64,000 nucleotides of DNA from Eledone cirrhosa (lineage: Eukaryota), in assembly GCA_964016885.1 (NCBI GenBank), contig OZ024761.1:7564001-7628000 (forward strand), given 5' to 3'. The position numbers were made by a program, and so were the translations under genes. This document shows positions 1 to 63,222 of this stretch, piece after piece (position 1 is the stretch's first letter; every line of letters starts with the position of its first letter). The notes below the pieces were generated by a model that was given only the letters and a program-made list of their open reading frames with translations, did not search any database and was not told the DNA's origin.

Positions 1-1644
1 TCAGAATTGCATGTAGACCTAGATAAAAAAACAATGTGAAAACCAATTCCTGTGACCAAACTCGTTAGTAGGAGAGAAAGAGAAAATAAAAACGAATCGT
101 CTCTACTTGTGAAAATGTAAACACTACCACAAATTATCCAACTGTATAATACAGTATGCACCCCCCCCCCCCCTTCCATACATATCTCATGAGGACAGGC
201 TGAAACACTGCAAAGTGGTCATGATTGTGATACAGTAAAAAGCACCCAGCTCACACTGTAAAATGTATGTAGGCGTGTGTATATATATATATATATGTAT
301 CCACACTGTAAATGTTGTTGGCATTCCAGCTGTAAAAACCAAGCCAAAATCAGTTCTGTATGAGCAAGACAAGATCATCTGACCTAACATTGCCCACAAC
401 AGGACAACTCGTCTAACCCATGCCAGCGTGGAGAAATGGACGTAAAATGATGTATTCAAAATAAAAAAACATATCGTATCGGACTTTAATAGTCTACAAA
501 TTAATATTCATTCCACAATATAATTTTCATTGATGAAATTTAACAAATATTTCTCCAAGAAAATCGAAAATTCTGACATCGCTCTCCACATGTTAAAACA
601 GCAAGAGGGAATAAACAACATTCTCAACGATTCCCTGCAAATTTGGGGCTCTAAAAGACTTATGTAGCTCAATTTAATGCATTTTTTAATAGAAATGTAT
701 CTTTACTTCATAAATTCGCCCATTTCTTGAAATTTTGGCTCAAACTCAATATTTGAAGCCTTGGATTCGTGCTCCATTTCAGCCCTCACCATGCAGGAAT
801 ACAACATTTTGACAAATAGTGTCAACATGTATTAGGAATATCCATAGCATTCTCCTTTTTATTGGATTTGTGCTAGTGCCATCTTGTGGCCAGAATCAGC
901 AATGGTATAAAAATCTTGAAGAAAATGTGTTCTTTTCTAAGTGAAAATTAATAAAATTTTCGCATTCATATTTCATAAAGATTATCTGACCTACCCACAT
1001 CGATTTTTATATCAAATATACAGTCGATCAACAAGATCCCAGACCTCATTCGCTTAACAAGTGGGATAGGGCTTGTCAAATCGGACCGAGGAAACAATGT
1101 TTCCACTGGTCTTTCCAATTGCTAATACTATCTGTCAGTCGCAACTCCAGGCAGAAGGAGCAACATGAAATAAAGTGTCTTGCTCAAGGACATAACGCAT
1201 TACCCGGTCTGGGAATTGAAATCACCCCACGATTGCGAATCCAATTCTCTAACCACTCAATCACGTGTCTTCACAATAAAAAAAAAATTAAAAAAAAAAG
1301 ACTTCTTCATGACTGTATCATTGACAACACAAATCAAGTTATACTGTTCCAGTGTATTGAACAAGAACTAGCGTTACAGTTCAGCAATCAAAAATGAAAA
1401 CGGGACAAAAGTTGTAAATGAGTGGAAATATGAAGGTGATTGAGGGGATCTGGCATGATATGCAAGTGTCAGATTTTGATCAAAAGTATATGAGAAGAAA
1501 GTTCACATCCAGAACTTTCAAATGATATATAATTGTCTATGAAAAAAAATGTATTTTGACATAAAAATGATGAAGCAAAAATGGATTTTTGTGTGGTCAA
1601 ACTGTGCTTGTCACACTTGGAGCTCTACAGTGATTTCTGTTGTG

Positions 1645-1862
1645 ACACCAACACTACCACCTTACAGGGTAGACTGGACCCTTTTGATCATGGCACCAGC
1701 ATTACCACCTTACAGGGTAGACTGGACCCTTTTGATCATGGCACCAGCATTACCACCTTACAGAGTAGACTGGACCCTTTTGATCATGGCACCAGCATTA
1801 CCACCTTACAGAGTGCTTTCAGTTGTAAGACTAAGTACAACCACTTTACAGGGTAGACTGGG
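1645..1862. repeat. Short 48-bp minisatellite, ~4 copies
   Basis: Unit related to the 56.7-59.6 kb arrays (TACCACCTTACAGGGTAGACTGGACCCTTTTGATCATGGCACCAGCAT). Confidence 0.85.
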
Positions 1863-1896
1863 TTGCAAAAAAAAAAAAAAAGAAAAAAATAATTAC

Positions 1897-2026: not shown

Positions 2027-2734
2027 CTGAAATTAGAAAAACATTGCTGTAATTCTTTCTAATTTAGGCAAAAAAAAGGTGGTGGTGGTGGCAGTTGTGG
2101 GGTGGGGGACGTTTGGCTATATTGACCCACAGTGCATTACTGGTACTTTATCTTAACTCCAACCCCTCCCAGGAGGAAAGACAAAGCTGTAATTCTTTCT
2201 AAGTTAGACACAAAAAGGTGGTGGTGGTGGTAAGGTGGGGAAATGTTGGCTATATTGACCCACAGTAATTACTGGTACTTCATTTTAACTCCAACCCCTC
2301 CCATGATGAAAAGCAAAGTTGAACATGCTGTAACCTGAACTTATACTGCAAAGCACTTTCTCTGATGCTCTACCAACTCTGCCAACCCGTCACTTTAAGG
2401 CAGTGTTGTAACAATTCTATTTAGCATTTGTACAATCATCATCATCATCATATTAACATCAGCTTTTCCTGCTAGAAAGGGTTGGACAGGTCTACATAGA
2501 CCAAGTCAGTACCGAAGCAGTGGCTCCTGATCTCCCAGACAGGCCAGGGATCTGTTGTCTCATTTATGTACAGTCTCACATTTCACCGAGTTGCACAGGA
2601 GAGGTTGTCATGTCTTTGTCACAACTGAAGGGTCTGCCCAACCCTTTGTTTGGCAAGCTTTTTATGGATGGATGCCCTTCCTAGCACAAGTCTAGCAATA
2701 TTTTAAGGAAGTGAGGATGGAAAGGTGATTATAT

Positions 2735-5699: not shown

Positions 5700-5972
5700 C
5701 AGTTGTCCCCTGGTATTTACAGCAGTTACATTCCTAGAGCACCAACAAAGGGTGAAAAAATATCGGACATGGTCCATAAAAATGCCTATAACGTAAAATA
5801 TAATAAAAATAAAAAGAGAGAGCGTTTTATGCGAAGGGGCGTCCAATAGGCCGACAAATGTGGTATATTATTAATAATTTAGCATTAAAGAAATATATAT
5901 TGCCACCCACGAAAAAAGCCATAAATAAAAAAATCGCGAATAATTGGGACCACAAATATTGGGGATACACTG
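5700..5972. mobile_element. Mariner/pogo-like MITE (related copies 34332-34643, 52988-53428)
   Basis: Imperfect TIRs CAGTTGTCCCC / GGGGATACACTG, TA flanks, shared internal sequence among three copies. Confidence 0.7.
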
Positions 5973-7469
5973 TATATATATATAACCCTTCAGTTACCAA
6001 CCAAGCCAAATACTGGGGATACACTGTATATATATATAACCCTTTAGTTACCAACCAAGCCAAATACTGGGGGTACACTGTATATATATATATATAACCC
6101 TTCAGTTACCAACCAAGCCAAATACTGGGGGTACACTGTATATATATATAACCCTTCAGTTACCAACCAAGCCAAATACTGGGGGTACACTGTATATATA
6201 TATAACCCTTTAGTTACCAACCAAGCCAAATACTGGGGATACACTGTATATATATATAACCCTTTAGTTACCAACCAAGCCAAATACTGGGGGTACACTG
6301 TATATATATATAACCCTTCAGTTACCAACCAAGCCAAATACTGGGGGTACACTGTATATATATATAACCCTTTAGTTACCAACCAAGCCAAATACTGGGG
6401 GTACACTGTATATATATATAACCCTTTAGTTACCAACCAAGCCAAATACTGGGGGTACACTGTATATATATATAACCCTTTAGTTACCAACCAAGCCAAA
6501 TACTGGGGGTACACTGTATATATATATAACCCTTCAGTTACCAACCAAGCCAAATACTGGGGGTACACTGTATATATATATAACCCTTCAGTTACCAACC
6601 AAGCCAAATACTGGGGGTACACTGTATATATATAACCCTTCAGTTACCAACCAAGCCAAATACTGGGGATACACTGTATATATATATAACCCTTTAGTTA
6701 CCAACCAAGCCAAATACTGGGGGTACACTGTATATATATATAACCCTTTAGTTACCAACCAAGCCAAATACTGGGGGTACACTGTATATATATATAACCC
6801 TTTAATTACCAACCAAGTCAAATACTGGGGTACACTGTATATATATATAACCCTTTAGTTACCAACCAAGCCAAATATTGGGGATACACTGTATATATAT
6901 ATATAACCCTTTAGTTACCAACCAAGCCAAATACTGGGGGTACACTGTATATATATATAACCCTTTAGTTACCAACCAAGCCAAATACTGGGGGTACACT
7001 GTATATATATATAACCCTTTAGTTACCAACCAAGCCAAATACTGGGGGTACACTGTATATATATATAACCCTTTAGTTACCAACCAAGCCAAATACTGGG
7101 GGTACACTGTATATATATAACCCCTTAGTTACCAACCAAGCCAAATACTGGGGGTACACTGTATATATATATAACCCTTTAGTTACCAACCAAGCCAAAT
7201 ACTGGGGGTACACTGTATATATATAACCCCTTAGTTACCAACCAAGCCAAATACTGGGGGTACACTGTATATATATATAACCCTTTAGTTACCAACCAAG
7301 CCAAATACTGGGGGTACACTGTATATATATATAACCCTTTAGTTACCAACCAAGCCAAATACTGGGGGTACACTGTATATATATATAACCCTTTAGTTAC
7401 CAACCAAGCCAAATACTGGGGGTACACTGTATATATATCTATAACCCTTTAATTACCAACCAAGCCAAA
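5952..7469. repeat. 54-bp minisatellite, ~28 copies
   Basis: Unit CCAAGCCAAATACTGGGGGTACACTG(TA)nACCCTTTAGTTACCAA. Confidence 0.95.
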
Positions 7470-32552: not shown

Positions 32553-33871
32553 CATATAAACATATCATCATCATCATCCTCGTTTTATGTCCGCTTTTCC
32601 CTACTTGCAAGGGTTGGACGGGTCCTATTCAGCACAGCATATCTCCATTTGTCACAGTCCTTCATCATCTCGGTGAGTTTCAGCAATCTGGGGTCTGCTC
32701 TCACCACCTCCACCCATGTTTTTCATGGTATACCTCTACTGCATCTTCCTTCTACTGGGATTTCTTGGCACTTCTTTACCCAGCAGTCATCCTCCATGCT
32801 GCATGGTAGTGAGACATGGACAGCAACTGTGAAGGATATGCGACGGCTGGAGAGAAATGAAGCAAGCATGTTCCGTTGGATGTACAATGTTTAATGTCAA
32901 CGACCAAGCATGGCTGAGTTGAGAGAGAAACTGTGTATAAGAGGGATAAATTTTAGTGTGCGGGAGAGAAGACTGCGTTGGTATGGAGGATGACCGCTGG
33001 GTAAAGAAGTGCCAAGAAATCCCAGTAGAAGGAAGACCACAAAAAACATAGGTGGAGGTGGTTAGAGCTGATCTCATATCACTGAAGCTCACAGAGGAGA
33101 TGACGAATGGGGAGATGCTGTGCTGAATAGGACCCGTCCCACCCTTGCAAGCAGGGAAAAGCGGTTGAGGGCAGAGTAAGAAGTGTAAGTTATAGGGAGC
33201 TGAGATGGAGAAGCTAGAATATAATAAAATACAACAAACAAGATAAAACTTTTTTAACCCTTTAGCATTTACATTACTCTATATATACTATTGTATTTTC
33301 ACTGCAAAGGCTTTACTTCACATAATATCTCACATAACATTTACATTACTCTATATATACTATTGTATTTTCACTGCAAAGGCTTTACTTCACATAATAT
33401 CTCACATAACATTTACATTACTCTATATATACTATTGTATTTTCACTGCAAAGGCTTTACCTCACATAATATCTCACATAACATTTACATTACTCTATAT
33501 ATACTATAGTATTTTCATGGTAAAGGCTTTATCTCACATAATATCGACTCTATGATATTTTGATATTATTTATTATGAGAACACTACCTTAACATAAGTA
33601 TGAGTAGCTGGTTATAGCCAGTTTGAACAGAAAGTGGTGAGAGAATTCTGGCCGGCTTAAATATTAAAGGTAGAGGTGTAGAAAGAGTTAATGTTAGAAT
33701 TAAAAATAGAATTAGGGTTAGGGTTGGAGTTAGAATTAAGGTTAAGGTTAAAATTAAAATTAGAATTAGGGTTAGAGTTAGAGTTATAATTAGGATTCGG
33801 GTTAGTGGTTTGGTATCAGATAGGATAAATACAATACCATATTCTGACTTGTTGTTGTTGTTATTTTCCAG

Positions 33872-37835: not shown

Positions 37836-38539
37836 CATTACTAAGATAGTAACTTAATGTAAGTTCCTTATATAAAATTATGTTCAAAGATTTTAATTTA
37901 ATCCTTTAGCATTTAAACCGACCATATCCAGCTATCCTCTAACCACTTATTGTTCAAACCGGCCATAACTGGCTGCTCATACTGATGTTAAGGTATTGTT
38001 TTCAAAATAAATAATATCAAAATCTCATAGATTCGATATTATGTGAGATAATTATGTGAGGTAAAGCCTTTACCATGAAAATAAATAGTATATATAGAGT
38101 AATGTAAATGATAAAGGGTTAAATAGGAACCCTTTATTTCAATTAATTAATGAAGAATGTTGAGGGATTTACTAAAATTATTAATTATTTTGTTACTAAG
38201 ATTGTAACTTAATGTAAGGTCCTTATACAAAATTATGTTGGAAAATTTTAGTTTAAATTGGAACCCCTTAAAATGGGTGGTTTTATTTCATAGAACCAGA
38301 GCCAGTTTTGGCCAGGTAGGTATTTAAAGGGTTAAGGAACCGTTTGAATAAATGTCAGACAACTGTGAGGAAAAAAAGTTCAGTGAGTGACTATGTAGAA
38401 GTTCCCACATTGGACTGGTGGGTTTTGGGTTGCATTGTTTTGTTATAGTAGTCCTTATTAGGTAAGGTAAAGGGCCCTGAACACCCACTGGAGTCCTAGG
38501 GACACCGTCCTGATACATGGCGTGTCTTGGGCATTTTAA

Positions 38540-41500
38540 CCCTTTAGCATTCACATTACTCTATATATACTATTGTATTTTCACAGTAAATATCTTTACC
38601 TCACATAATATCTCACATAGCATTTACATTACTCTATATATACTATTGTATTTTCACAGTAAAGGCTTTACCTTACATAATATCTCATAACATTTACATT
38701 ACTCTATATATAATATTGTATTTTCACAGTAAAGTCTTTACCTCACATAATATCTCACATAGCATTTACATTACTCTATATATACTATTGTATTTTCACA
38801 GTAAAGTCTTTACCTCACATAATATCTCACATAACATTTACATTACTCTATATATACTATTGTATTTTCACAGTAAATATCTTTACCTCACATAATATCT
38901 CACATAGCATTTACATTACTCTATATATACTATTGTATTTTCACAGTAAAGGCTTTACCTTACATAATATCTCATAACATTTACATTACTCTATATATAA
39001 TATTGTATTTTCACAGTAAAGTCTTTACCTCACATAATATCTCACATAGCATTTACATTACTCTATATATACTATTGTATTTTCACAGTAAAGTCTTTAC
39101 CTCACATAATATCTCACATAACATTTACATTACACTATATATACTATTGTATTTTTGCAGTAAAGGCTTTACCTTACATAATATATCATAACATTTACAT
39201 TACTCTATATATACTATTGTATTTTCGCAGTAAAGGCTTTACCTTACATAATATTTCATAACATTTACATTACTCTATATATACTATTGTATTTTTGCAG
39301 TAAAGGCTTTACCTCACATAATATCTCACATAACATTTACATTACACTATATATACTATTGTATTTTCGCAGTAAAGGCTTTACCTTACATAATATATCA
39401 TAACATTTACATTACTCTATATATACTATTGTATTTTCACAGTAAAGGCTTTACCTCACATAACATTTACATTACTCTATATATACTATTGTATTTTCAC
39501 AGTAAAGGCTTTACCTCACATAATATCTCACATAACATTTACATTACTCTATATATACTATTGTATTTTCACAGTAAAGTCTTTACCTCACATAATATCT
39601 CACATAACATTTACATTACACTATATATACTATTGTATTTTCGCAGTAAAGGCTTTACCTTACATAATATTTCATAACATTTACATTACTCTATATATAC
39701 TATTGTATTTTTGCAGTAAAGGCTTTACCTCACATAATATCTCACATAACATTTACATTACTCTATATATACTATTGTATTTTACATAATATTTCATAAC
39801 ATTTACATTACTCTATATATACTATTGTATTTTCACAGTAAAGTCTTTACCTCACATAACATTTACATTACTCTATATATACTATTGTATTTTCACAGTA
39901 AAAGCTTTACCTCACATAATATCTCACATAACATTTACATTACTCTATATATACTATTGTATTTTCACAGTAAAAGCTTTACCTCACATAATATCTCACA
40001 TAACATTTACATTACTCTATATATACTATTGTATTTTCACAGTAAAGGCTTTACCTCACATATCTCACATAACATTTACATTACTCTATATATACTATTG
40101 TATTTTCACAGTAAAGGCTTTACCTCACATAATATCTCACATAACATTTACATTACTCTATATATACTATTGTATTTTCACAGTAAAGTCTTTACCTCAC
40201 ATAATATCTCACATAACATTTACATTACACTATATATACTATTGTATTTTCGCAGTAAAGGCTTTACCTTACATAATATTTCATAACATTTACATTACTC
40301 TATATATACTATTGTATTTTTGCAGTAAAGGCTTTACCTCACATAATATCTCACATAACATTTACATTACTCTATATATACTATTGTATTTTACATAATA
40401 TTTCATAACATTTACATTACTCTATATATACTATTGTATTTTCACAGTAAAGTCTTTACCTCACATAACATTTACATTACTCTATATATACTATTGTATT
40501 TTCACAGTAAAAGCTTTACCTCACATAATATCTCACATAACATTTACATTACTCTATATATACTATTGTATTTTCACAGTAAAAGCTTTACCTCACATAA
40601 TATCTCACATAACATTTACATTACTCTATATATACTATTGTATTTTCACAGTAAAAGCTTTACCTCACATAATATCTCACATAACATTTACATTACTCTA
40701 TATATACTATTGTATTTTCACAGTAAAAGCTTTACCTCACATAATATCTCACATAACATTTACATTACTCTATATATACTATTGTATTTTCACAGTAAAG
40801 GCTTTACCTCACATATCTCACATAACATTTACATTACTCTATATATACTATTGTATTTTCACAGTAAAGGTTTTACCTCACATAATATCTCACATAACAT
40901 TTACATTACTCTATATATACTATTGTATTTTCACAGTAAAGGCTTTACCTCCCATAATATCTCACATAACATTTACATTACTCTATATATACTGTTGTAT
41001 TTTCACAGTAAAGGCTTTACCTCACATAATATCTCACATAACATTTACATTACTCTATATATACTATTGTATTTTCACAGTAAAGGCTTTACCTCACATA
41101 TCTCACATAACATTTACATTACTCTATATATACTATTGTATTTTCGCAGTAAAGGCTTTATCTCACATAATATCTCACATAACATTTATATTACTCTATA
41201 TATACTATTGTATTTTCGCAGTAAAGGCTTTACCTTACATAATATCTCACATAACATTTACATTACTCTATATATACTATTGTATTTTCACAGTAAAGGC
41301 TTTACCTCACATAATATCTCACATAACATTTACATTACTCTATATATACTATTGTATTTTCACAGTAAAGGCTTTACCTCACATAACATTTATATTACTC
41401 TATATATACTATTGTATTTTCGCAGTAAAGGCTTTACCTTACATAATATCTCACATAACATTTACATTACTCTATATATACTATTATATTTTCACAGTAA

Positions 41501-41743
41501 AGGCTTTACCTCACATAATATCTCACATAACATTTACATTACTCTATATATACTATTGTATTTTCGCAGTAAAGGCTTTACCTTACATAATTATTCACAT
41601 CGAATCTATGAGATTTTGATGATATTATTACTTACTTTGAAAACAAGTCCTTAACATCAGTATGAGTGGCTAGTTATGGCTGGTTTGAACAGAGAGAGGT
41701 GAGAGAATTCTGGCCGGTTATGGCCGGTTTGAATGCTAAAGGG
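38540..41743. mobile_element. piggyBac-like MITE expanded by an internal 72-bp minisatellite
   Basis: TTAA on both sides, perfect 14-bp TIR CCCTTTAGCATTCA / TGAATGCTAAAGGG; ~40+ tandem 60-72 bp units inside. Confidence 0.88.
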
Positions 41744-41973: not shown

Positions 41974-42059
41974 CAAAGTGAAAGCCAGAGAGATGATTCT
42001 GCAACAGAAACAATATCAAGCAGCTCAACAGTTTCATCCACAACTGGGATATCACATGG
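41974..42059 (+). CDS. ERICH6: ERICH6-like coding exon 6
   Basis: KVKAREMILQQKQYQAAQQFHPQLGYHM; long pyrimidine tract + CAG, GTAAGT donor; phase 2 to 1. Confidence 0.8.
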
Positions 42060-42835
42060 GTAAGTTAGAGGAGCTAGGATATTACATGGTTAATTTAGAG
42101 GAGATAGGACATCATATGTCAGTTAGAAGAGCTAGGATACCACATAGGTAAGCTAGAGGAGGTAGGTTACCACATTGGTAAGATATAGGAGGTAGGATAT
42201 CACATGGGTAAGTTAGAAGAGTTAGGATATCACATGGGTAAGCTAGAGGAGTTAGGATATCACATGGGTAAGTTATAGGAGCTAGGATATCACATGGGTA
42301 AGCTAGAGGAGTTAGGATATTACATGGGTAAGTTAGAAGAGCTTGGATATAACATGGATAAGTTAGAGGAACTAGGATACCACATAGGTAAGTTAGAGGA
42401 ACTAGGATATCACATGGGTAAGTTAGAGGAGTTAGGATATAACATGGATAAGTTAGAGGAGCAAGGATGCCACATAGGTAAGTTAGAGGAGCTAGGATAT
42501 AACATGGGCAAGTTAGAGGAGCAAGGATGCCACATAGGTAAGTTAGAGGAACTAGGATATCACATGGGTAAGTTAGAGGAGTTAGGATATAACATGGAGT
42601 AGTTAGAGGAGCAAGGATGCCACATAGGTAAGTTAGAGGAACTAGGATATCACATGGGTAAGTTAGAGGAGTTAGGATATAACATGGATAAGTTAGAGGA
42701 GCAAGGATGCCACATAGGTAAGTTAGAGGAGCTAGGATATAACATGGGTAAGTTAGAGGAGCAAGGATGCCACATAGGTAAGTTAGAGGAGCTAGGATAT
42801 CACATGGGTAATTTAAAGGAGCTAGGATTTCATGA
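42046..42835. repeat. 30-bp minisatellite, ~26 copies, overlapping the exon 6 donor
   Basis: Unit GGATATCACATGGGTAAGTTAGAGGAGCTA. Confidence 0.95.
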
Positions 42836-51500: not shown

Positions 51501-52717
51501 GTTTGTCATGTTGTGTCTGAACGGTCCCCTCAAATTCTATAGAAGTTAGTGGGCTACACTGGTCAGGTGACCACATCTTGCTCATTTCTGAGGCCGGAAG
51601 CTCTTCTTCATACTAACTCCTATTATTATATGGCGGTGGATTGGCAGTATCGGTAGAGGGTCGGACACCATGCTTTGACGCATAGAATTACGACCCTGCC
51701 ATTCTGAGTAGTTCAAATCCTGTCGAGGTTAACTTTGCCTTTCATCCTTACGGGGTCGATAAAATAAAGTACCAGTAATACACTGGGATAATTGCTGGCC
51801 TTGTGCCAAAAGTAGAAACAATTATTATATGGCGGTGGTTTGGCAGTATTGGTAGAGCGTCAGACACCATGCTTTGCAGCATAGAGTTATGACCCTTTAC
51901 GTTCTGAGTTCAAATCCTGCTGAGGTTAACTTTGCCTTTCAACCTTATGGGGTCGATAAAATAAAGCACCAGTAATGTACTGGGGTCGATTTAATCGACT
52001 TTTCCCTTCCCTGAAAATTGCTGGCCTTGTGCTTAGATCAGAAACCATTATTATAGTTATCTGCATTGTGGTAACTACTCTCAGGTCCAAAATAATAGGA
52101 GAGGGCTTGGAAAATCGATAATTTTTCTAGGTTGTCTCCCTTGATTTTTTTAAAATACCAGAATTAGTTGTTTAGTTTACATATTGAGCCCAACTCATCC
52201 TATTTATTTCATAACATATGGGATTTCTTCTTCTTCGCTCACTTAAAAATTGTTGCAGGAAAGTTACCACCAGAAGGAGATAGATTAGCAAAAATGAATA
52301 AGCAGAGGGTGGAGGTGGATTAACCCTTTAATGTTCAAACCGACCAACACCAGCCAGAATTCTCTACCTCTTTCTGAAACTGGCTGTAACTGGTCACTCA
52401 AACTGATGTTAAGGTATTGTTCTCAAAATAAATACTTTCAAAATCTCATAGATTCGATATTATGTGAGATAATTATGTGAGGTAAAGCCTTTACCATGAA
52501 AATATAATAGTATATATAAAATAATGTGAATGCTAAAGGGTTAAGAGTTGTGTGTGTGGGAGGGAGGGGGGGGGGAGGGGGGTAATCTGAAAAATTAATG
52601 GAGTGTGGGAGGTTAATTGAGACCTGAGAATATATATTCAAATTTAAAAATCTGTCAATGTTTCACTACCTATTGTCATCTTATCCAATCAGCTGAAATA
52701 CTCCTCAACAGCTCTAG
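48099..52717 (+). other. U12-type (minor spliceosome) GT-AG intron
   Basis: 5' GTATCCTTT; branch-point-like TCCTCAAC at 52702-52709, ~10 nt from TAG acceptor, no polypyrimidine tract; splicing restores GNIF-YPSGK. Confidence 0.85.
48808..49340 (-). mobile_element. RTE-like LINE fragment, third family
   Basis: DGCYTRMLRM...RRLRLAGHAHRH..LWEP...GRGGPRLTYVD. Confidence 0.8.
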
Positions 52718-55955: not shown

Positions 55956-56377
55956 AGCTGATATCTATATATATAAAGTTGTAGTTCCTGTCTGTTTGTT
56001 CACAAACTCCTCCTATGGTTTTGGAGATAGACCCCCATAACCATATATATTTTGAAACTACATTGCCCAGGGTTTTTGGATAAGTATATTTCATTTTAAT
56101 CAAAGGGTTCCCCGGGGGCACAAAACCCCCGCTGAAAAATTTTTATCTTCGATTTATATGAAATTTAAACCATTCACAAAATTTCAGCAAATTTCAATAA
56201 TATTAAGACAAGTTCAAATCCTGCCAAGTTTAACTTTGCCTTTCATCCTTACGGGGTCAATAAAATAAAGTACCAGTAATGTACTGAAGTAATTGCTGGC
56301 CTTGTGCCAAAAGTAGAAACAAGTATTTCATGTTCTGTTGAAAAAAAGTCTGCAAATTCGTTTTCACTTTTTCACAG

Positions 56378-56600
56378 GTTATATATTGACCCAGCTGGGG
56401 GTATGGAGATGAGTCCTGCTGGTCCCTGTCGCAAGAAATGGGTGTGGCAGGAACTTCAATGCCATGCCCCTCCACTTCAGCCCATCTACATTCGCCTAAA
56501 TGGGTTTATTGGCATGAAGGTGTTGTCACAGCGGAACATTCAGTTGAACTTCAACTTCAAAAGATTTAGCTGTCGCATGAATCTTGGAGTTTACGTGAAA
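56378..56600 (+). CDS. ERICH6: ERICH6-like coding exon 10
   Basis: LYIDPAGGMEMSPAGPCRKKWVW...PIYIRLNGFIGMKVLSQRNIQLNF...NLGVYVK; CACAG acceptor, GTAAGT donor. Confidence 0.92.
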
Positions 56601-56651
56601 GTAAGTATTGGTATTGTTTTGTTTGAGGAGGAAATATGGGTGAGGAAAACA

Positions 56652-58119
56652 CCCACCACCCTCTCCAGAGTGTACTGGGTTCATTTTGTCATAACACCAG
56701 CACTACCACTTTACAGAGTGTACTGTGTGTATTTTATCATGGCACCAGTGCTACCACTTTACAGAGTGCACTGTGTGTATTTTATCATGGCACCAGTGCT
56801 ACCACTTTACAGAGTGTACTGGGTGTGCTTTATCATGACACCACCATTACCACTTTACAGAGTGCACTGTGTGTATTTTATCATAGCACCAGTGCTACCA
56901 CTTTACAGAGTGTACTGGGGGTGCTTTATCATGACACCACCATTACCACTTTACAGAGTGCACTGTGTGTATTTTATCATGGCACCAGTGCTACCACTTT
57001 ACAGAGTGTACCGGGTGTGCTTTATCATGACACCACCATTACCACTTTACAGAGTGCACTGTGTGTATTTTATCATGGCACCAGTGCTACCACTTTACAG
57101 AGTGTACTGGGTGTGCTTTATCATGGCACCACCATTACCACTTTACAGAGTGCACTGTGTGTATTTTATCATGGCACCAGTGCTACCACTTTACAGAGTG
57201 TACTGGGTGTGCTTTATCATGGCACCAGTGCTACAACTTTACAGAGTGCACTGTGTGTATTTTATCATGGCACCAGTGCTACCACTTTACAGAATGCACT
57301 GTGTGTATTTTATCATGGCACCAGTGCTACCACTTTACAGAGTGTACTGGGTGTGCTTTATCATGACACCACCACTACCACTTTACAGAGTGTATTGTGT
57401 GTATTTTATCATGGCACCAGCACTACCACTTTACAGAGTGTACTGGGTGTGCTTTATCATGACACCACCATTACCACTTTACAGAGTGTACTGGGTGTGC
57501 TTTATCATGACACCACCATTACCACTTTACAGAGTGCACTGTGTGTATTTTATCATGGCACCAGTGCTACCACTTTACAGAGTGTACCGGGTGTGCTTTA
57601 TCATGACACCACCATTACCACTTTACAGAATGCACTGTGTGTATTTTATCATGGCACCAGTGCTACCACTTTACAGAGTGTACTGGGTGTGCTTTATCAT
57701 GGCACCACCATTACCACTTTACAGAGTGCACTGTGTGTATTTTATCATGGCACCAGTGCTACCACTTTACAGAGTGTACTGGGTGTGCTTTATCATGGCA
57801 CCAGTGCTACCACTTTACAGAGTGCACTGTGTGTATTTTATCATGGCACCAGTACTACCACTTTACAGAGTGTACTGGGTGTGCTTTATCATGACACCAC
57901 CATTACCACTTAACAGAGTGTATTGTGTGTATTTTATCATGGCACCAGTGCTACCACTTTACAGAGTGTACTGGGTGTGCTTTATCAAAACACCAGCACT
58001 ACCACTTTACAGAGTGTACTGGGTGTGCTTTATCATGACACCACCATTACCACTTTACAGAGTGTACTGGGTGTGCTTTATCATGAGACCACCATTACCA
58101 CTTTACAGAGTGTACTGGG
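56652..58119 (+). repeat. 48-bp minisatellite, ~30 copies
   Basis: Unit CTACCACTTTACAGAGTGTACTGGGTGTGCTTTATCATGGCACCAGTG and variants. Confidence 0.97.
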
Positions 58120-58194
58120 CACAACAATAGTTTCAAAATATTAATTGTGATAACTGTCAGCTGTAACAAACTATTTTCTCTCTCCTCTCTACAG

Positions 58195-58271
58195 CCTGCC
58201 ACTGTGGCAAAATGGATTCCATTTGTGGATGAACAGTTTCTGTATTTGGAAGACAAAAGAAACCAAATTGA
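58195..58271 (+). CDS. ERICH6: ERICH6-like coding exon 11 (77 nt)
   Basis: PATVAKWIPFVDEQFLYLEDKRNQI; strong pyrimidine tract + ACAG, GTAAGT donor; needed to keep frame into the last exon. Confidence 0.85.
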
Positions 58272-58318
58272 GTAAGTGAGGTTCAGTTCTTTATATTCTT
58301 TTAACTGACATGACAGCT

Positions 58319-59611
58319 ACACTCTGTAAAGTGGTAGTGGTGGTACCTTGATAATGCACACCCAGTACACTCTGTAAAGTGGTAGTGGTGGTACCTTGAT
58401 AAAGCACACCCAGTACACTCTGTAAAGTGGTAGTGCTGGTGTCATGATAAAGCACACCCAGTACACTCTGTAAAGTGGTAATGGTGGTACCTTGATAAAG
58501 CACACCCAGTACTCTGTAAAGTGGTAGTGTTGGTCTCATGATAAAGCACACCCAGTACACTCTGTAAAGTGGTAGTCCTAGTGTCATGTTAAAATACACC
58601 CAGTACACTTTGTAAAGTAGTAGTGGTGGTGTCATGATAAAGCACACCCAGTACACTCTGTAAAGTGGTAGTCCTAGTGTCATGATAAAGCACACCCAGT
58701 ACACTCTGTAAAGAGGCAGTGCTGGTGTCATGATAAAATACACCCAGTACACTCTGTAAAGTGGTAGTCCTGGTGTCATGATAGAATACACCCAGTACAC
58801 TCTGTAAAGTGGTAGTGTTGGTGTCATGATAAAATACACCCAGTACACTCTGTAAAGTGGTAGTCCTGGTGTCATGATAAAATACACCCAGTACACTCTG
58901 TAGAGTGGTAGTCCTGGTGTCATGATAAAGCACACCCAGTACACTCTGTAAAGTGGTAGTCCTGGAGTTATGATAAAATACACCCAGTACACTCTGTAAA
59001 GTGGTAGTGTTGGTGTCATGTTAAAATACACCCAGTACACTTTGTAAAGTAGTAGTGGTGGTGTCATGATAAAGCACACCCAGTACACTCTGTAAAGTGG
59101 TAGTCCTAGTGTCATGATAAAGCACACCCAGTACACTCTGTAAAGTGGCAGTGCTGGTGTCATGATAAAATACACCCAGTACACTCTGTAAAGTGGTAGT
59201 CCTGGTGTCATGATAAAGCACACCCAGTACACTCTGTAAAGTGGTAGTGTTGGTGTCATGATAAAATACACCCAGTACACTCTGTAAAGTGGTAGTCCTG
59301 GTGTCATGATAAAATACACCCAGTACACTCTGTAGAGTGGTAGTCCTGGTGTCATGATAAAGCACACCCAGTACACTCTGTAAAGTGGTAGTCCTGGAGT
59401 TATGATAAAATACACCCAGTACACTCTGTAAAGTGGTAGTGTTGGTGTCATGTTAAAATACACCCAGTACACTTTGTAAAGTAGTAGTGGTGGTGTCATG
59501 ATAAAGCACACCCAGTACACTCTGTAAAGTGGTAGTCCTAGTGTCATGATAAAGCACACCCAGTACACTGTGTAAAGTGGCAGTGCTGGTGTCATGATAA
59601 AATACACCCAG
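58319..59611 (-). repeat. Same 48-bp minisatellite in opposite orientation, ~27 copies, 432-bp higher-order period
   Basis: Unit CACCCAGTACACTCTGTAAAGTGGTAGT...GTCATGATAAAGCA is the reverse complement of the left array. Confidence 0.97.
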
Positions 59612-59710
59612 TGATAAGAAGAGCATCCAGATGTATAAAAATGGCCAAACAAATGGTTGGGAGTACCCTTCAGTTGTTTCAAGAACATGACAAAACTATA
59701 TATATAACCA

Positions 59711-60260
<550 letters not shown>

Positions 60261-60377
60261 TATTATTATTTATACTCCAGTCCTACAAACTGTAGAGTGC
60301 TACTTATCTGATATCTGCATTTCTTTATTGTACTACAATAAAACTCACCTCCTACATATATATATATATATATATAG

Positions 60378-61340
60378 AGGGTTCTATAGAAATAGTGGAC
60401 AGCTTCCGTTACCTGGGCGATAAAATCAGCAGTGGGGGAGGGTGCTCTGAAAGTACTGTAGCTAGAGTCAGAACTGGTTGGAAAAAGTTCAGAGAGCTTA
60501 TACCACTATTAGCTGCTAAAGGGTTCTCCCTAAAAATGAAAGGCAGGTTGTACGATGCCTGCATACGAACAGCAATGTTGCATGGTAGTGAGACCTGGGC
60601 ATTGTGTGCAGAGGATATACGCAGACTAGAGAGGAACGAAGCTTGCATGCTCCGCTGGATGTGTAACAGTAATATACGTGAACGGCAAAGCATAAACGAA
60701 CTAAGGAAAAAATTAGAGATAAGAGGGATCAGATGTTGTTTACTCGAGAGAAGGCTGCGTTGGTATGGACACGTGATGCGCATGAAAGTCGATAGCTGTA
60801 TTACAAAGTGCAGGGCAATAAAGATAGACGGTAGCCACGGAATAGGCAGACCTAGAAAAACATGGGATGAGCTGATAAACTCCGACCTCACACACTTACA
60901 CCTCTCCAAGACAATGTCACTGGACCGTGACCTTTGGCGGTACTCAGTAACAGAGAAGACCCGCCTTGCCAGTAGGCATATCTAACAAAATACACCCCTC
61001 CCGCCGCCACCCCCACCCCATCCACACCACCCCGTTCTATGTAAAGTTATGTTGGTGCCGCGCCATCCAGGCCGAAACAAATGAGATCGTGTAGGTGTCA
61101 CGACAAAAAAACACACAGTCCACGCTGTAATGTGGCCGTGTAGGCAACACGGTAAAAACCTCCCAGACCCACACTGTAAATGTGGTTGGTGTTAGGAAGG
61201 GCATCCAACTGTAGAAAACCTGCCAGACAGTCCTATGCGAGCAAGACAATCACTCTTGCCTCAAGTGGGACTACCCCCGTCCAAACCCATGCAAGCGTGG
61301 AACACGGACGTTAAACGTTGATGATGATGATGATGATGAT
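60378..61340 (+). mobile_element. RTE LINE 5'-truncated copy
   Basis: ORF 60395-60985 FRYLGD...HGSETW...RLRWYGHV, 3' UTR and (GAT)n tail. Confidence 0.92.
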
Positions 61341-62367: not shown

Positions 62368-62563
62368 ATCCCTACTGGACAAGGTAAGGACTCTTCTGCA
62401 GTACTCCAGTTCCCCTAAACTGGACAAGATACTGCCCCCCATCTACCTGACAAACAGGATCAACAAACTGTTGGACAGGAGACAGAAACTTCGGACAGTG
62501 AATTCTATTAGGGCTCGGCCGAACATTCAGTTACAGCGGTCACCTGACTTAGAACGATCATGA
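62368..62563 (+). CDS. ERICH6: ERICH6-like terminal coding exon 12
   Basis: TTTCCAG acceptor; SLLDKVRTLLQYSSSPKLDKILPPIYL...DLERS-stop. Confidence 0.82.
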
Positions 62564-63222
62564 TGATGGTGATGATGGCACTGGTGGTGGTGATGGGGGT
62601 GATGACAATAATCATGATGATGATGGTGGTGGCGTTAGTGGTGGTAACGAAGATGATGGCAACGGTGGTGATGGTGATGATGGTGATAACCACCGTGGAA
62701 ATGGTGATGATGATGGTGGTGATGGTGATGATGATGATGGTGGTGGTGGTGGTGGTGATGGTGGTGATGGTGGTGGTGGTGATGGTGATGATGGTGGTGG
62801 TGATGGTGATGACGGTGATGATGATGGTGGTGATGGTGATGATGGTGATGACGGTGATGATGATGGTGATGATGGTGGTGGTGATGGTGGTGATGGTGAA
62901 TGTGATGGTGATGATGGTGATGGTGATGATGGTGGTGGTGAGGGTGATGATGATGGTGATGGTGATGGTGATGATGGTGGTGATTGTGATGGTGATGGTG
63001 ATGATGATGATGATAATGATGGGCTTAATGAAGATGGGGATAGTGATGATGGGGATGGTGAGGGTGATGATGATGGTGATGGTGATGGTGATGATGGTGA
63101 TGGTGGTGATGATGATGGTGGTGATTGTGATGGTGATGGTGATGATGATGATGATGATAATGATGGGCTTAATGAAGATGGGGATAGTGATGATGGGGAT
63201 GGTGGTAATTGTGATAATGGTA
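62560..63222. repeat. (GAT/GGT)n microsatellite directly after the ERICH6-like stop codon
   Basis: Direct reading; includes a ~120-bp internal duplication. Confidence 0.95.

Follow-up and report, generated by a model that had tools for sequence, protein, structure and literature searches.

A conserved coding exon between two opposed minisatellites of probable retroposon origin in an ERICH6-like gene of Eledone cirrhosa

Results

A conserved 77-nt exon in an ERICH6-like gene

We analysed a 64,000-nt stretch of the Eledone cirrhosa genome (contig OZ024761.1, positions 7,564,001 to 7,628,000 of the forward strand), hereafter the window, in which a short coding exon of an ERICH6-like gene lies between two minisatellite arrays that face in opposite directions (Table 1). 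Using tblastn, 10 segments of the gene were placed between about 29.6 and 62.6 kb of the window; the exon numbers 10, 11 and 12 serve here as labels. The gene belongs to the ERICH6/FAM194 family by domain and by orthology: the upstream exon, which ends in phase 0, matched PF14977 (E=3.8e-14), and its product was 82%, 81% and 76% identical to ERICH6-like proteins of O. bimaculoides, O. sinensis and Argonauta, respectively. Human ERICH6 is listed as testis-specific in PMC7436996.

The exon between the arrays, referred to as the loop exon, is bounded by AG and GTAAGT. By inspection, a long pyrimidine tract and TACAG make up its acceptor, unlike the weak 3' acceptor of TBXT-type skipping. When the C-termini of 37 long proteins out of 125 homologues were aligned, the segment encoded by the loop exon was present in all 37. 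Thirteen cephalopod-type sequences were examined, 12 of which reach this region and include the exon (12/12), the other being an N-terminal fragment. Skipping the 77 nt would shift the frame of the last coding exon, as had been proposed in a preliminary description of this DNA; we find that the C-terminal 90 aa of the protein would be replaced by 16 aa.

Other features of the gene were also recorded. The stop codon of the last exon is followed by a GAT/GGT low-complexity tract (62557–63166), and the O. bimaculoides gene model P0001 has an Asp-rich tail at the matching place. Further upstream, an array of 26 copies of a 30-bp unit (42047–42832) is a tandemly amplified exon/intron junction of the ERICH6-like exon that ends at 42060; it contains GGTAAG 18 times, that is, decoy 5' splice sites directly behind the real donor. 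The frame of the upstream exon stays open across the entire left array (56280–58130, plus strand; 616 aa from stop to stop), and intron retention would append a hydrophobic 16-residue repeat over about 510 aa. A short-protein search with the upstream exon yielded no candidate, and none of the 109 phmmer matches to the exon plus array read-through joined FAM194 to the repeat peptide; the five repeat-region matches examined were unrelated periodic ORFs.

Table 1 Features of the array pair and its host gene, in window coordinates
Feature	Position	Strand	Description
Upstream exon (exon 10)	56378..56600	+	ERICH6-like gene; C-terminal part of FAM194 domain
Left array	56652..58119	-	30 copies of the 48-bp retroposon-3'-UTR unit, with two types in alternation; antisense to the gene
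Loop, 5' part	58120..58194	+	Branch-point region, pyrimidine tract and 3' splice site
Loop exon (exon 11)	58195..58271	+	77 nt, coding, conserved; tblastn; exact match to a contig of run X3
Loop, 3' part	58272..58317	+	5' splice site, then 46-nt spacer
Right array	58318..59612	+	27 copies of the 48-bp unit, sense to the gene
Retroposon 3' tail	59611..59696	+	Extends the right array in the same orientation; 79% to window 2605–2687 (-); aligned to LINE/SINE tails
5'-truncated LINE (source family)	60376..61340	+	200-aa open C-terminal frame, then 3' UTR with two unit copies
Last coding exon (exon 12)	62368..62563	+	tblastn; skipping of the loop exon would change its reading frame

Two arrays that expanded separately

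Tandem Repeats Finder reported 30.3 copies of a 48-bp unit in the left array (56666–58119) and 27.0 copies in the right array, in the opposite orientation. The intron holding the left array measures 1,594 nt, with 126 nt remaining outside the array. The preliminary description had given 30 and 27 copies in opposite orientations, which these results confirm, and had placed the arrays ~75 nt upstream and ~48 nt downstream of the exon, where we measured 75 and 46 nt.

It had further suggested that the arrays carry different variants and periodicities and expanded separately rather than through one inversion, and both suggestions held up. Two unit types alternate in the left array, which is 92% identical to itself at 96 bp versus 85% at 48 bp. 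The right array reaches 97.8% self-identity at 432 bp compared to 90–92% at the remaining multiples of 48, and this nine-unit higher-order repeat excludes its innermost four to five units. No whole 48-bp unit is identical between the two arrays. Their longest inverted alignment was 86.6% over 1,298 nt, left and right units (30 × 26 pairs) differed on average at 6.3 of 48 positions, and mirror registers gave 5.6–6.7 differences with none favoured. Because no mirror register stood out, we ruled out a single inversion of one finished array.

The unit in a LINE/SINE 3' UTR

Judging from alignments, the unit is not locus-specific and is a repeated segment of an abundant LINE and SINE 3' UTR. It aligned to the doubled 3'-UTR segment of the truncated LINE downstream of the right array, as well as to the tails of SINE-like copies. 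The 200-aa frame of this LINE was described by Atlas as an 'endonuclease-reverse transcriptase fragment' (0.95) and as DUF6451, with a recognition value below the Atlas threshold; it had no match in Pfam. Only the C-terminal part is present. From its motifs, we take the element to be RTE-like. A profile search identified 25 loci of the family in the window, of which the 23 outside the arrays lie on the plus (n=15) and minus (n=8) strands. Neighbouring copies are in opposite orientation in 10 of 24 cases and head-to-head within 330 nt in 3 of 24. Beyond the window, contigs matching a unit at 88% or more numbered 1,086 in sequencing run X1 and 1,083 in run X2, and many continue in tandem. Two joints in the contigs of these runs ('skips 201' and 'skips 207', with sides of only 20–22 nt) suggest head-to-head unit pairs with the same starting phase at other loci.

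At their outer ends, the left array runs into a terminal-type unit and the right array into an element tail, each in the orientation of its own array. As in transposable element (TE)-derived minisatellites, the unit has a homologous segment in a dispersed element, with element-type flank; as in an inverted retroposon pair, one family occurs in opposite orientations within one pre-mRNA. Long inverted arms built of sub-repeats are also expected of a Foldback-type DNA transposon whose terminal inverted repeats consist of tandem repeats, and the two weak head-to-head joints just described in X1 and X2 would fit one too. We nevertheless regard such a transposon as extremely unlikely and rejected it: the two outer ends do not mirror each other, and no shared word of at least 6 nt, as expected of a target-site duplication, flanks the whole; the middle is occupied by an exon of the host gene in its usual place in the gene order; and the unit and tail are those of a LINE 3' UTR.

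Long arrays are frequent in the window, where seven exceed 700 bp and together cover 10,937 nt (17%). Arrays with 72-bp and 54-bp units likewise sit inside dispersed elements, in which they have grown: the former at 38548–41600 and 33266–33545 (43 and 3.9 copies) and the latter at 5953–7469 (28 copies). Inverted copies of the 72-bp element are found at 37897–38123 and 52318–52548. An older array of the 48-bp family with 3.5 copies (1643–1863, minus strand) lies 33 nt past the donor of an RRM-encoding exon, presumably RBMX2-like, in a gene on the minus strand; its placement after a donor is the same as that of the right array. An Rfam search at the gathering threshold gave 0 matches across the window. 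Inverted pairs of at least 60 nt enclose four of the 10 exons of the gene in the window, and the array pair, with arms of 1.3 kb placed 198 nt apart, is far longer and closer than any other inverted pair there.

A probable common seed for both arms

The consensus units of the two arms differ at only three of 48 positions, and units of each arm are 90–91% identical to the consensus of the opposite one, compared to 67–79% for nine other copies in the window. Four alleles are common to both arms, accounting for about 3, 4, 4 and 7% of X1 depth at their positions, and two of these occur, on either side, in the innermost five units only. Because these rare variants are common to both, the arms probably arose from a single local seed and then expanded separately; as the allele shares are weighted by depth and do not count copies, and the alleles could be linked to one another, they are moderate evidence for a common seed. 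The likeness of the arms may stem from a seed copied in reverse across the exon or from arm-to-arm exchange. Two of the 25 family loci are expanded to kilobase size, and these two form a close head-to-head pair, for which simple arithmetic gives a chance of about 1 in 100 (3 of 300 pairs), suggesting that something couples the two expanded loci.

The left arm appears to be lineage-specific and recent. In the O. bimaculoides gene model P0001, 35 aa (V-S to Q) are inserted precisely where the left-array intron lies, and phmmer extends the match into this insert. This implies read-through of a 105-nt intron that has no array, and the E. cirrhosa intron without its array would be of similar size (126 nt versus ~105 nt). 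On this comparison, O. bimaculoides apparently lacks the left arm. The left array lies near the exon because the intron itself is small.

A predicted RNA hairpin with the exon in its loop

RNA folding of 56640–59630 predicted a minimum free energy of −2149 kcal/mol with 1,203 left–right pairs in four registers, compared to −903 kcal/mol when the right arm was flipped in silico. This prediction bears out the ~1.3-kb imperfect duplex with sliding registers put forward in the preliminary description, and the ~200-nt loop said to hold the exon and both splice sites measured 198 nt. The innermost predicted pair is 58114:58318 and helices are at most 53 bp long. A single pairing register contains 1,135 Watson–Crick and 67 G-U pairs, 42 A-C oppositions and 51 others. 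A 441-nt core folded as DNA had z=−22.9, and none of 100 shuffles was equally stable. By computation, the long duplex typical of inverted Alu pairs is thus predicted here as well.

Splice signals are predicted to stay out of the stem. Across an ensemble of 57800–58640, pairing with the arrays did not exceed 0.006 at 37 or 15 °C for the exon, both splice sites, the branch region and the pyrimidine tract, the last of which was 85% unpaired. The stem is predicted to nucleate as soon as transcription has covered about 24 nt of the right arm. The full fold places small hairpins in the loop exon, which folded alone was no better than shuffles (z −0.6).

Evidence from contigs of sequencing runs

Run contigs were compared with positions 58070–58365, that is, the loop and about one unit on each side; over these units, sequence from other loci swamped that of the arms. 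A contig of run X3 (1,406 nt, depth 4.4) matched the loop exon exactly, with 0 differences and no A-to-G change, and extended more than 230 nt beyond it on each side. Downstream of the loop exon, its 232 nt agree with the last exon as far as the low-complexity tail, if the coordinates follow the record's own strand. For the upstream exon region, a fraction of 0.74 of its words also occurs in X3; the library type of this run is not on record, and we infer that it is RNA because the contig is spliced. This contig is a spliced, exon-including and unedited form. Contigs lose minor forms and inclusion rests on this one contig, so minor skipping or partial editing would be compatible with it. Among the 13 joints listed for the run contigs, which show presence only, none was the back-splice 58271 to 58195; we attribute those labelled 'opposite strands' and 'goes back' to tandem copies at other loci that map on a two-sided stretch.

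These results bear on two functional readings of the stem. In the first, the duplex would bring the upstream donor to the stem base and loop out the exon in a regulated fraction of transcripts, with the ratio tuned by arm length or by ADAR melting. The stem is far longer and tighter than those of Alu pairs and could form with just 24 nt of the right arm made, and TBXT offers a precedent (PMC13019027). The stop of the skipped form would fall in the last coding exon found, so its decay is unlikely. Nonetheless, the X3 contig includes the exon, the acceptor has a long pyrimidine tract while PMC13019027 ties loop-out to weak acceptors, skipping would remove a segment kept in 37 of 37 homologues, and O. 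bimaculoides is apparently without the left arm; taken together, we consider this reading unlikely. In the second, the long stem would recruit ADAR and boost site-selective recoding in the small hairpins predicted within the loop exon, consistent with a report that inducer stems act on adjacent short duplexes (PMC5654063). Given that the X3 contig has 0 differences over the exon, and that the exon alone folds like shuffles, recoding of this kind seems very improbable.

We also considered whether the inverted join or the copy numbers could be errors of assembly. Runs X1 and X2 contain the upstream exon region fully yet have almost no depth over 58130–58309, and X4 (RAD) leaves the loop uncovered, so that DNA-like contigs gave the inverted join no independent support. 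A contig builder that prunes a short single-copy link between high-depth repeats would explain the hole over the loop in X1 and X2, and a hole in contig coverage proves nothing in itself. Moreover, the absence of identical units between the arms and their different higher-order periods are unlike a fold-back chimera, the flank of each arm is of element type and continues the orientation of that arm, and the exon itself is real, being present in the X3 contig and in orthologues. An artefact is therefore very unlikely.

Discussion

The explanation that we favour, and regard as probable, is that a conserved exon has come to lie between two minisatellites grown from a retroposon 3' UTR, and that the resulting duplex is a tolerated by-product of dense retroposons and expanding minisatellites, likely hyper-edited within the introns while the exon is mostly included. 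A repeat segment from a LINE or SINE 3' UTR would have seeded a local copy beside the exon, and this one seed would have given rise to two opposite-facing arms, each expanding separately. Paired in the pre-mRNA, the arms would form a duplex of ~1.2 kb that leaves the splice signals in the loop. ADAR would then hyper-edit the duplex within the introns, and the exon would still be included in most mRNA, with no selected function for the structure. As the only transcript-like contig retains the exon, a by-product is likelier than a splicing switch. Repeat-directed editing is widespread in cephalopod introns, so editing would be expected here and would be no sign of function.

In the preliminary description, this structure had been interpreted as a possible splicing or editing switch tuned by variable-number tandem repeats (VNTRs). 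The duplex, loop geometry, frameshift and separate expansion on which that interpretation drew all stand, but the switch itself is unsupported, given a conserved exon, splice signals that are consensus-like and predicted to be unpaired to the arrays, and an X3 contig that includes the exon unedited; the retroposon origin and the common seed had been missed. A broader version, in which coupled, co-expanding VNTR arms set exon loop-out or recoding through their length, giving each octopus a heritable, fast-mutating splice setting, and in which the repeat builds such hairpins at many genes, strikes us as distinctly unlikely; the older array behind another gene's donor and the two weak head-to-head joints at other loci would fit it. 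A search of the open-access literature turned up no VNTR-tuned loop-out switch and no account of this locus, or of such an arrangement, in cephalopods.

Should the exon prove constitutive, the locus would be a natural limit test of correct splicing at the far end of a ~1.2-kb RNA duplex whose base holds the upstream donor. It would bear on whether commitment to splicing beats folding or whether cephalopod ADAR melts stems of this kind. If skipping or recoding instead follows the length of the arrays, they would act as a loop-out switch tuned by VNTRs.

Several known systems resemble parts of this arrangement. Minisatellites are often TE-derived, with at least 23% of human mini/satellites assigned to this class (PMC3389668), and here too the array appears seeded in a transposable element and grown by local duplication; the difference is that there are two opposed arrays, one on each side of an exon, and that both probably go back to one seed. 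The source element, putatively RTE-like by its motifs, resembles the RTE-clade LINEs and RTE-tailed SINEs of octopus in belonging to an abundant non-LTR group whose 3' end is common to SINEs (PMC9115989, PMC8967140 and PMC5786205; for repeat context, PMC13282606). Repeat-derived A-to-I editing is described as ubiquitous in coleoid introns and UTRs (PMC9068888, PMC9989829), and long repeat-derived intronic dsRNA is predicted here from sequence. Circular RNAs driven by reverse complementary matches also have complementary flanks around one exon. According to PMC5042038, however, few exonic circles are below 80 nt and single-exon circles use long exons; at 77 nt, the loop exon is at the small limit and a single-exon circle is unlikely.

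The closest parallel is with inverted Alu pairs. Inverted repeats can cause exon skipping, as reported for TBXT (PMC13019027) and in PMC2533698, and inverted Alu pairs are enriched around skippable exons, chiefly those with weak acceptors (PMC13019027, PMC2533698, PMC7404189). At TBXT, skipping is documented, whereas at this locus there is an exon-including contig only. PMC13019027 also counts 23,540 constitutive human exons flanked by 232,493 Alu pairs, in either orientation, and the fold energy of inverted pairs given there barely separates skippable from constitutive exons (d=−0.12). As in those pairs, opposite copies of one retroposon family occupy both flanking introns, a stem-loop is predicted and ADAR editing is expected. 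In contrast to single 300-nt SINEs, the arms here are minisatellites of 1.3–1.5 kb with sliding registers, and the loop is only 198 nt. The best reading of this geometrically extreme feature is thus an octopod analogue of an inverted Alu pair, with minisatellites for arms.
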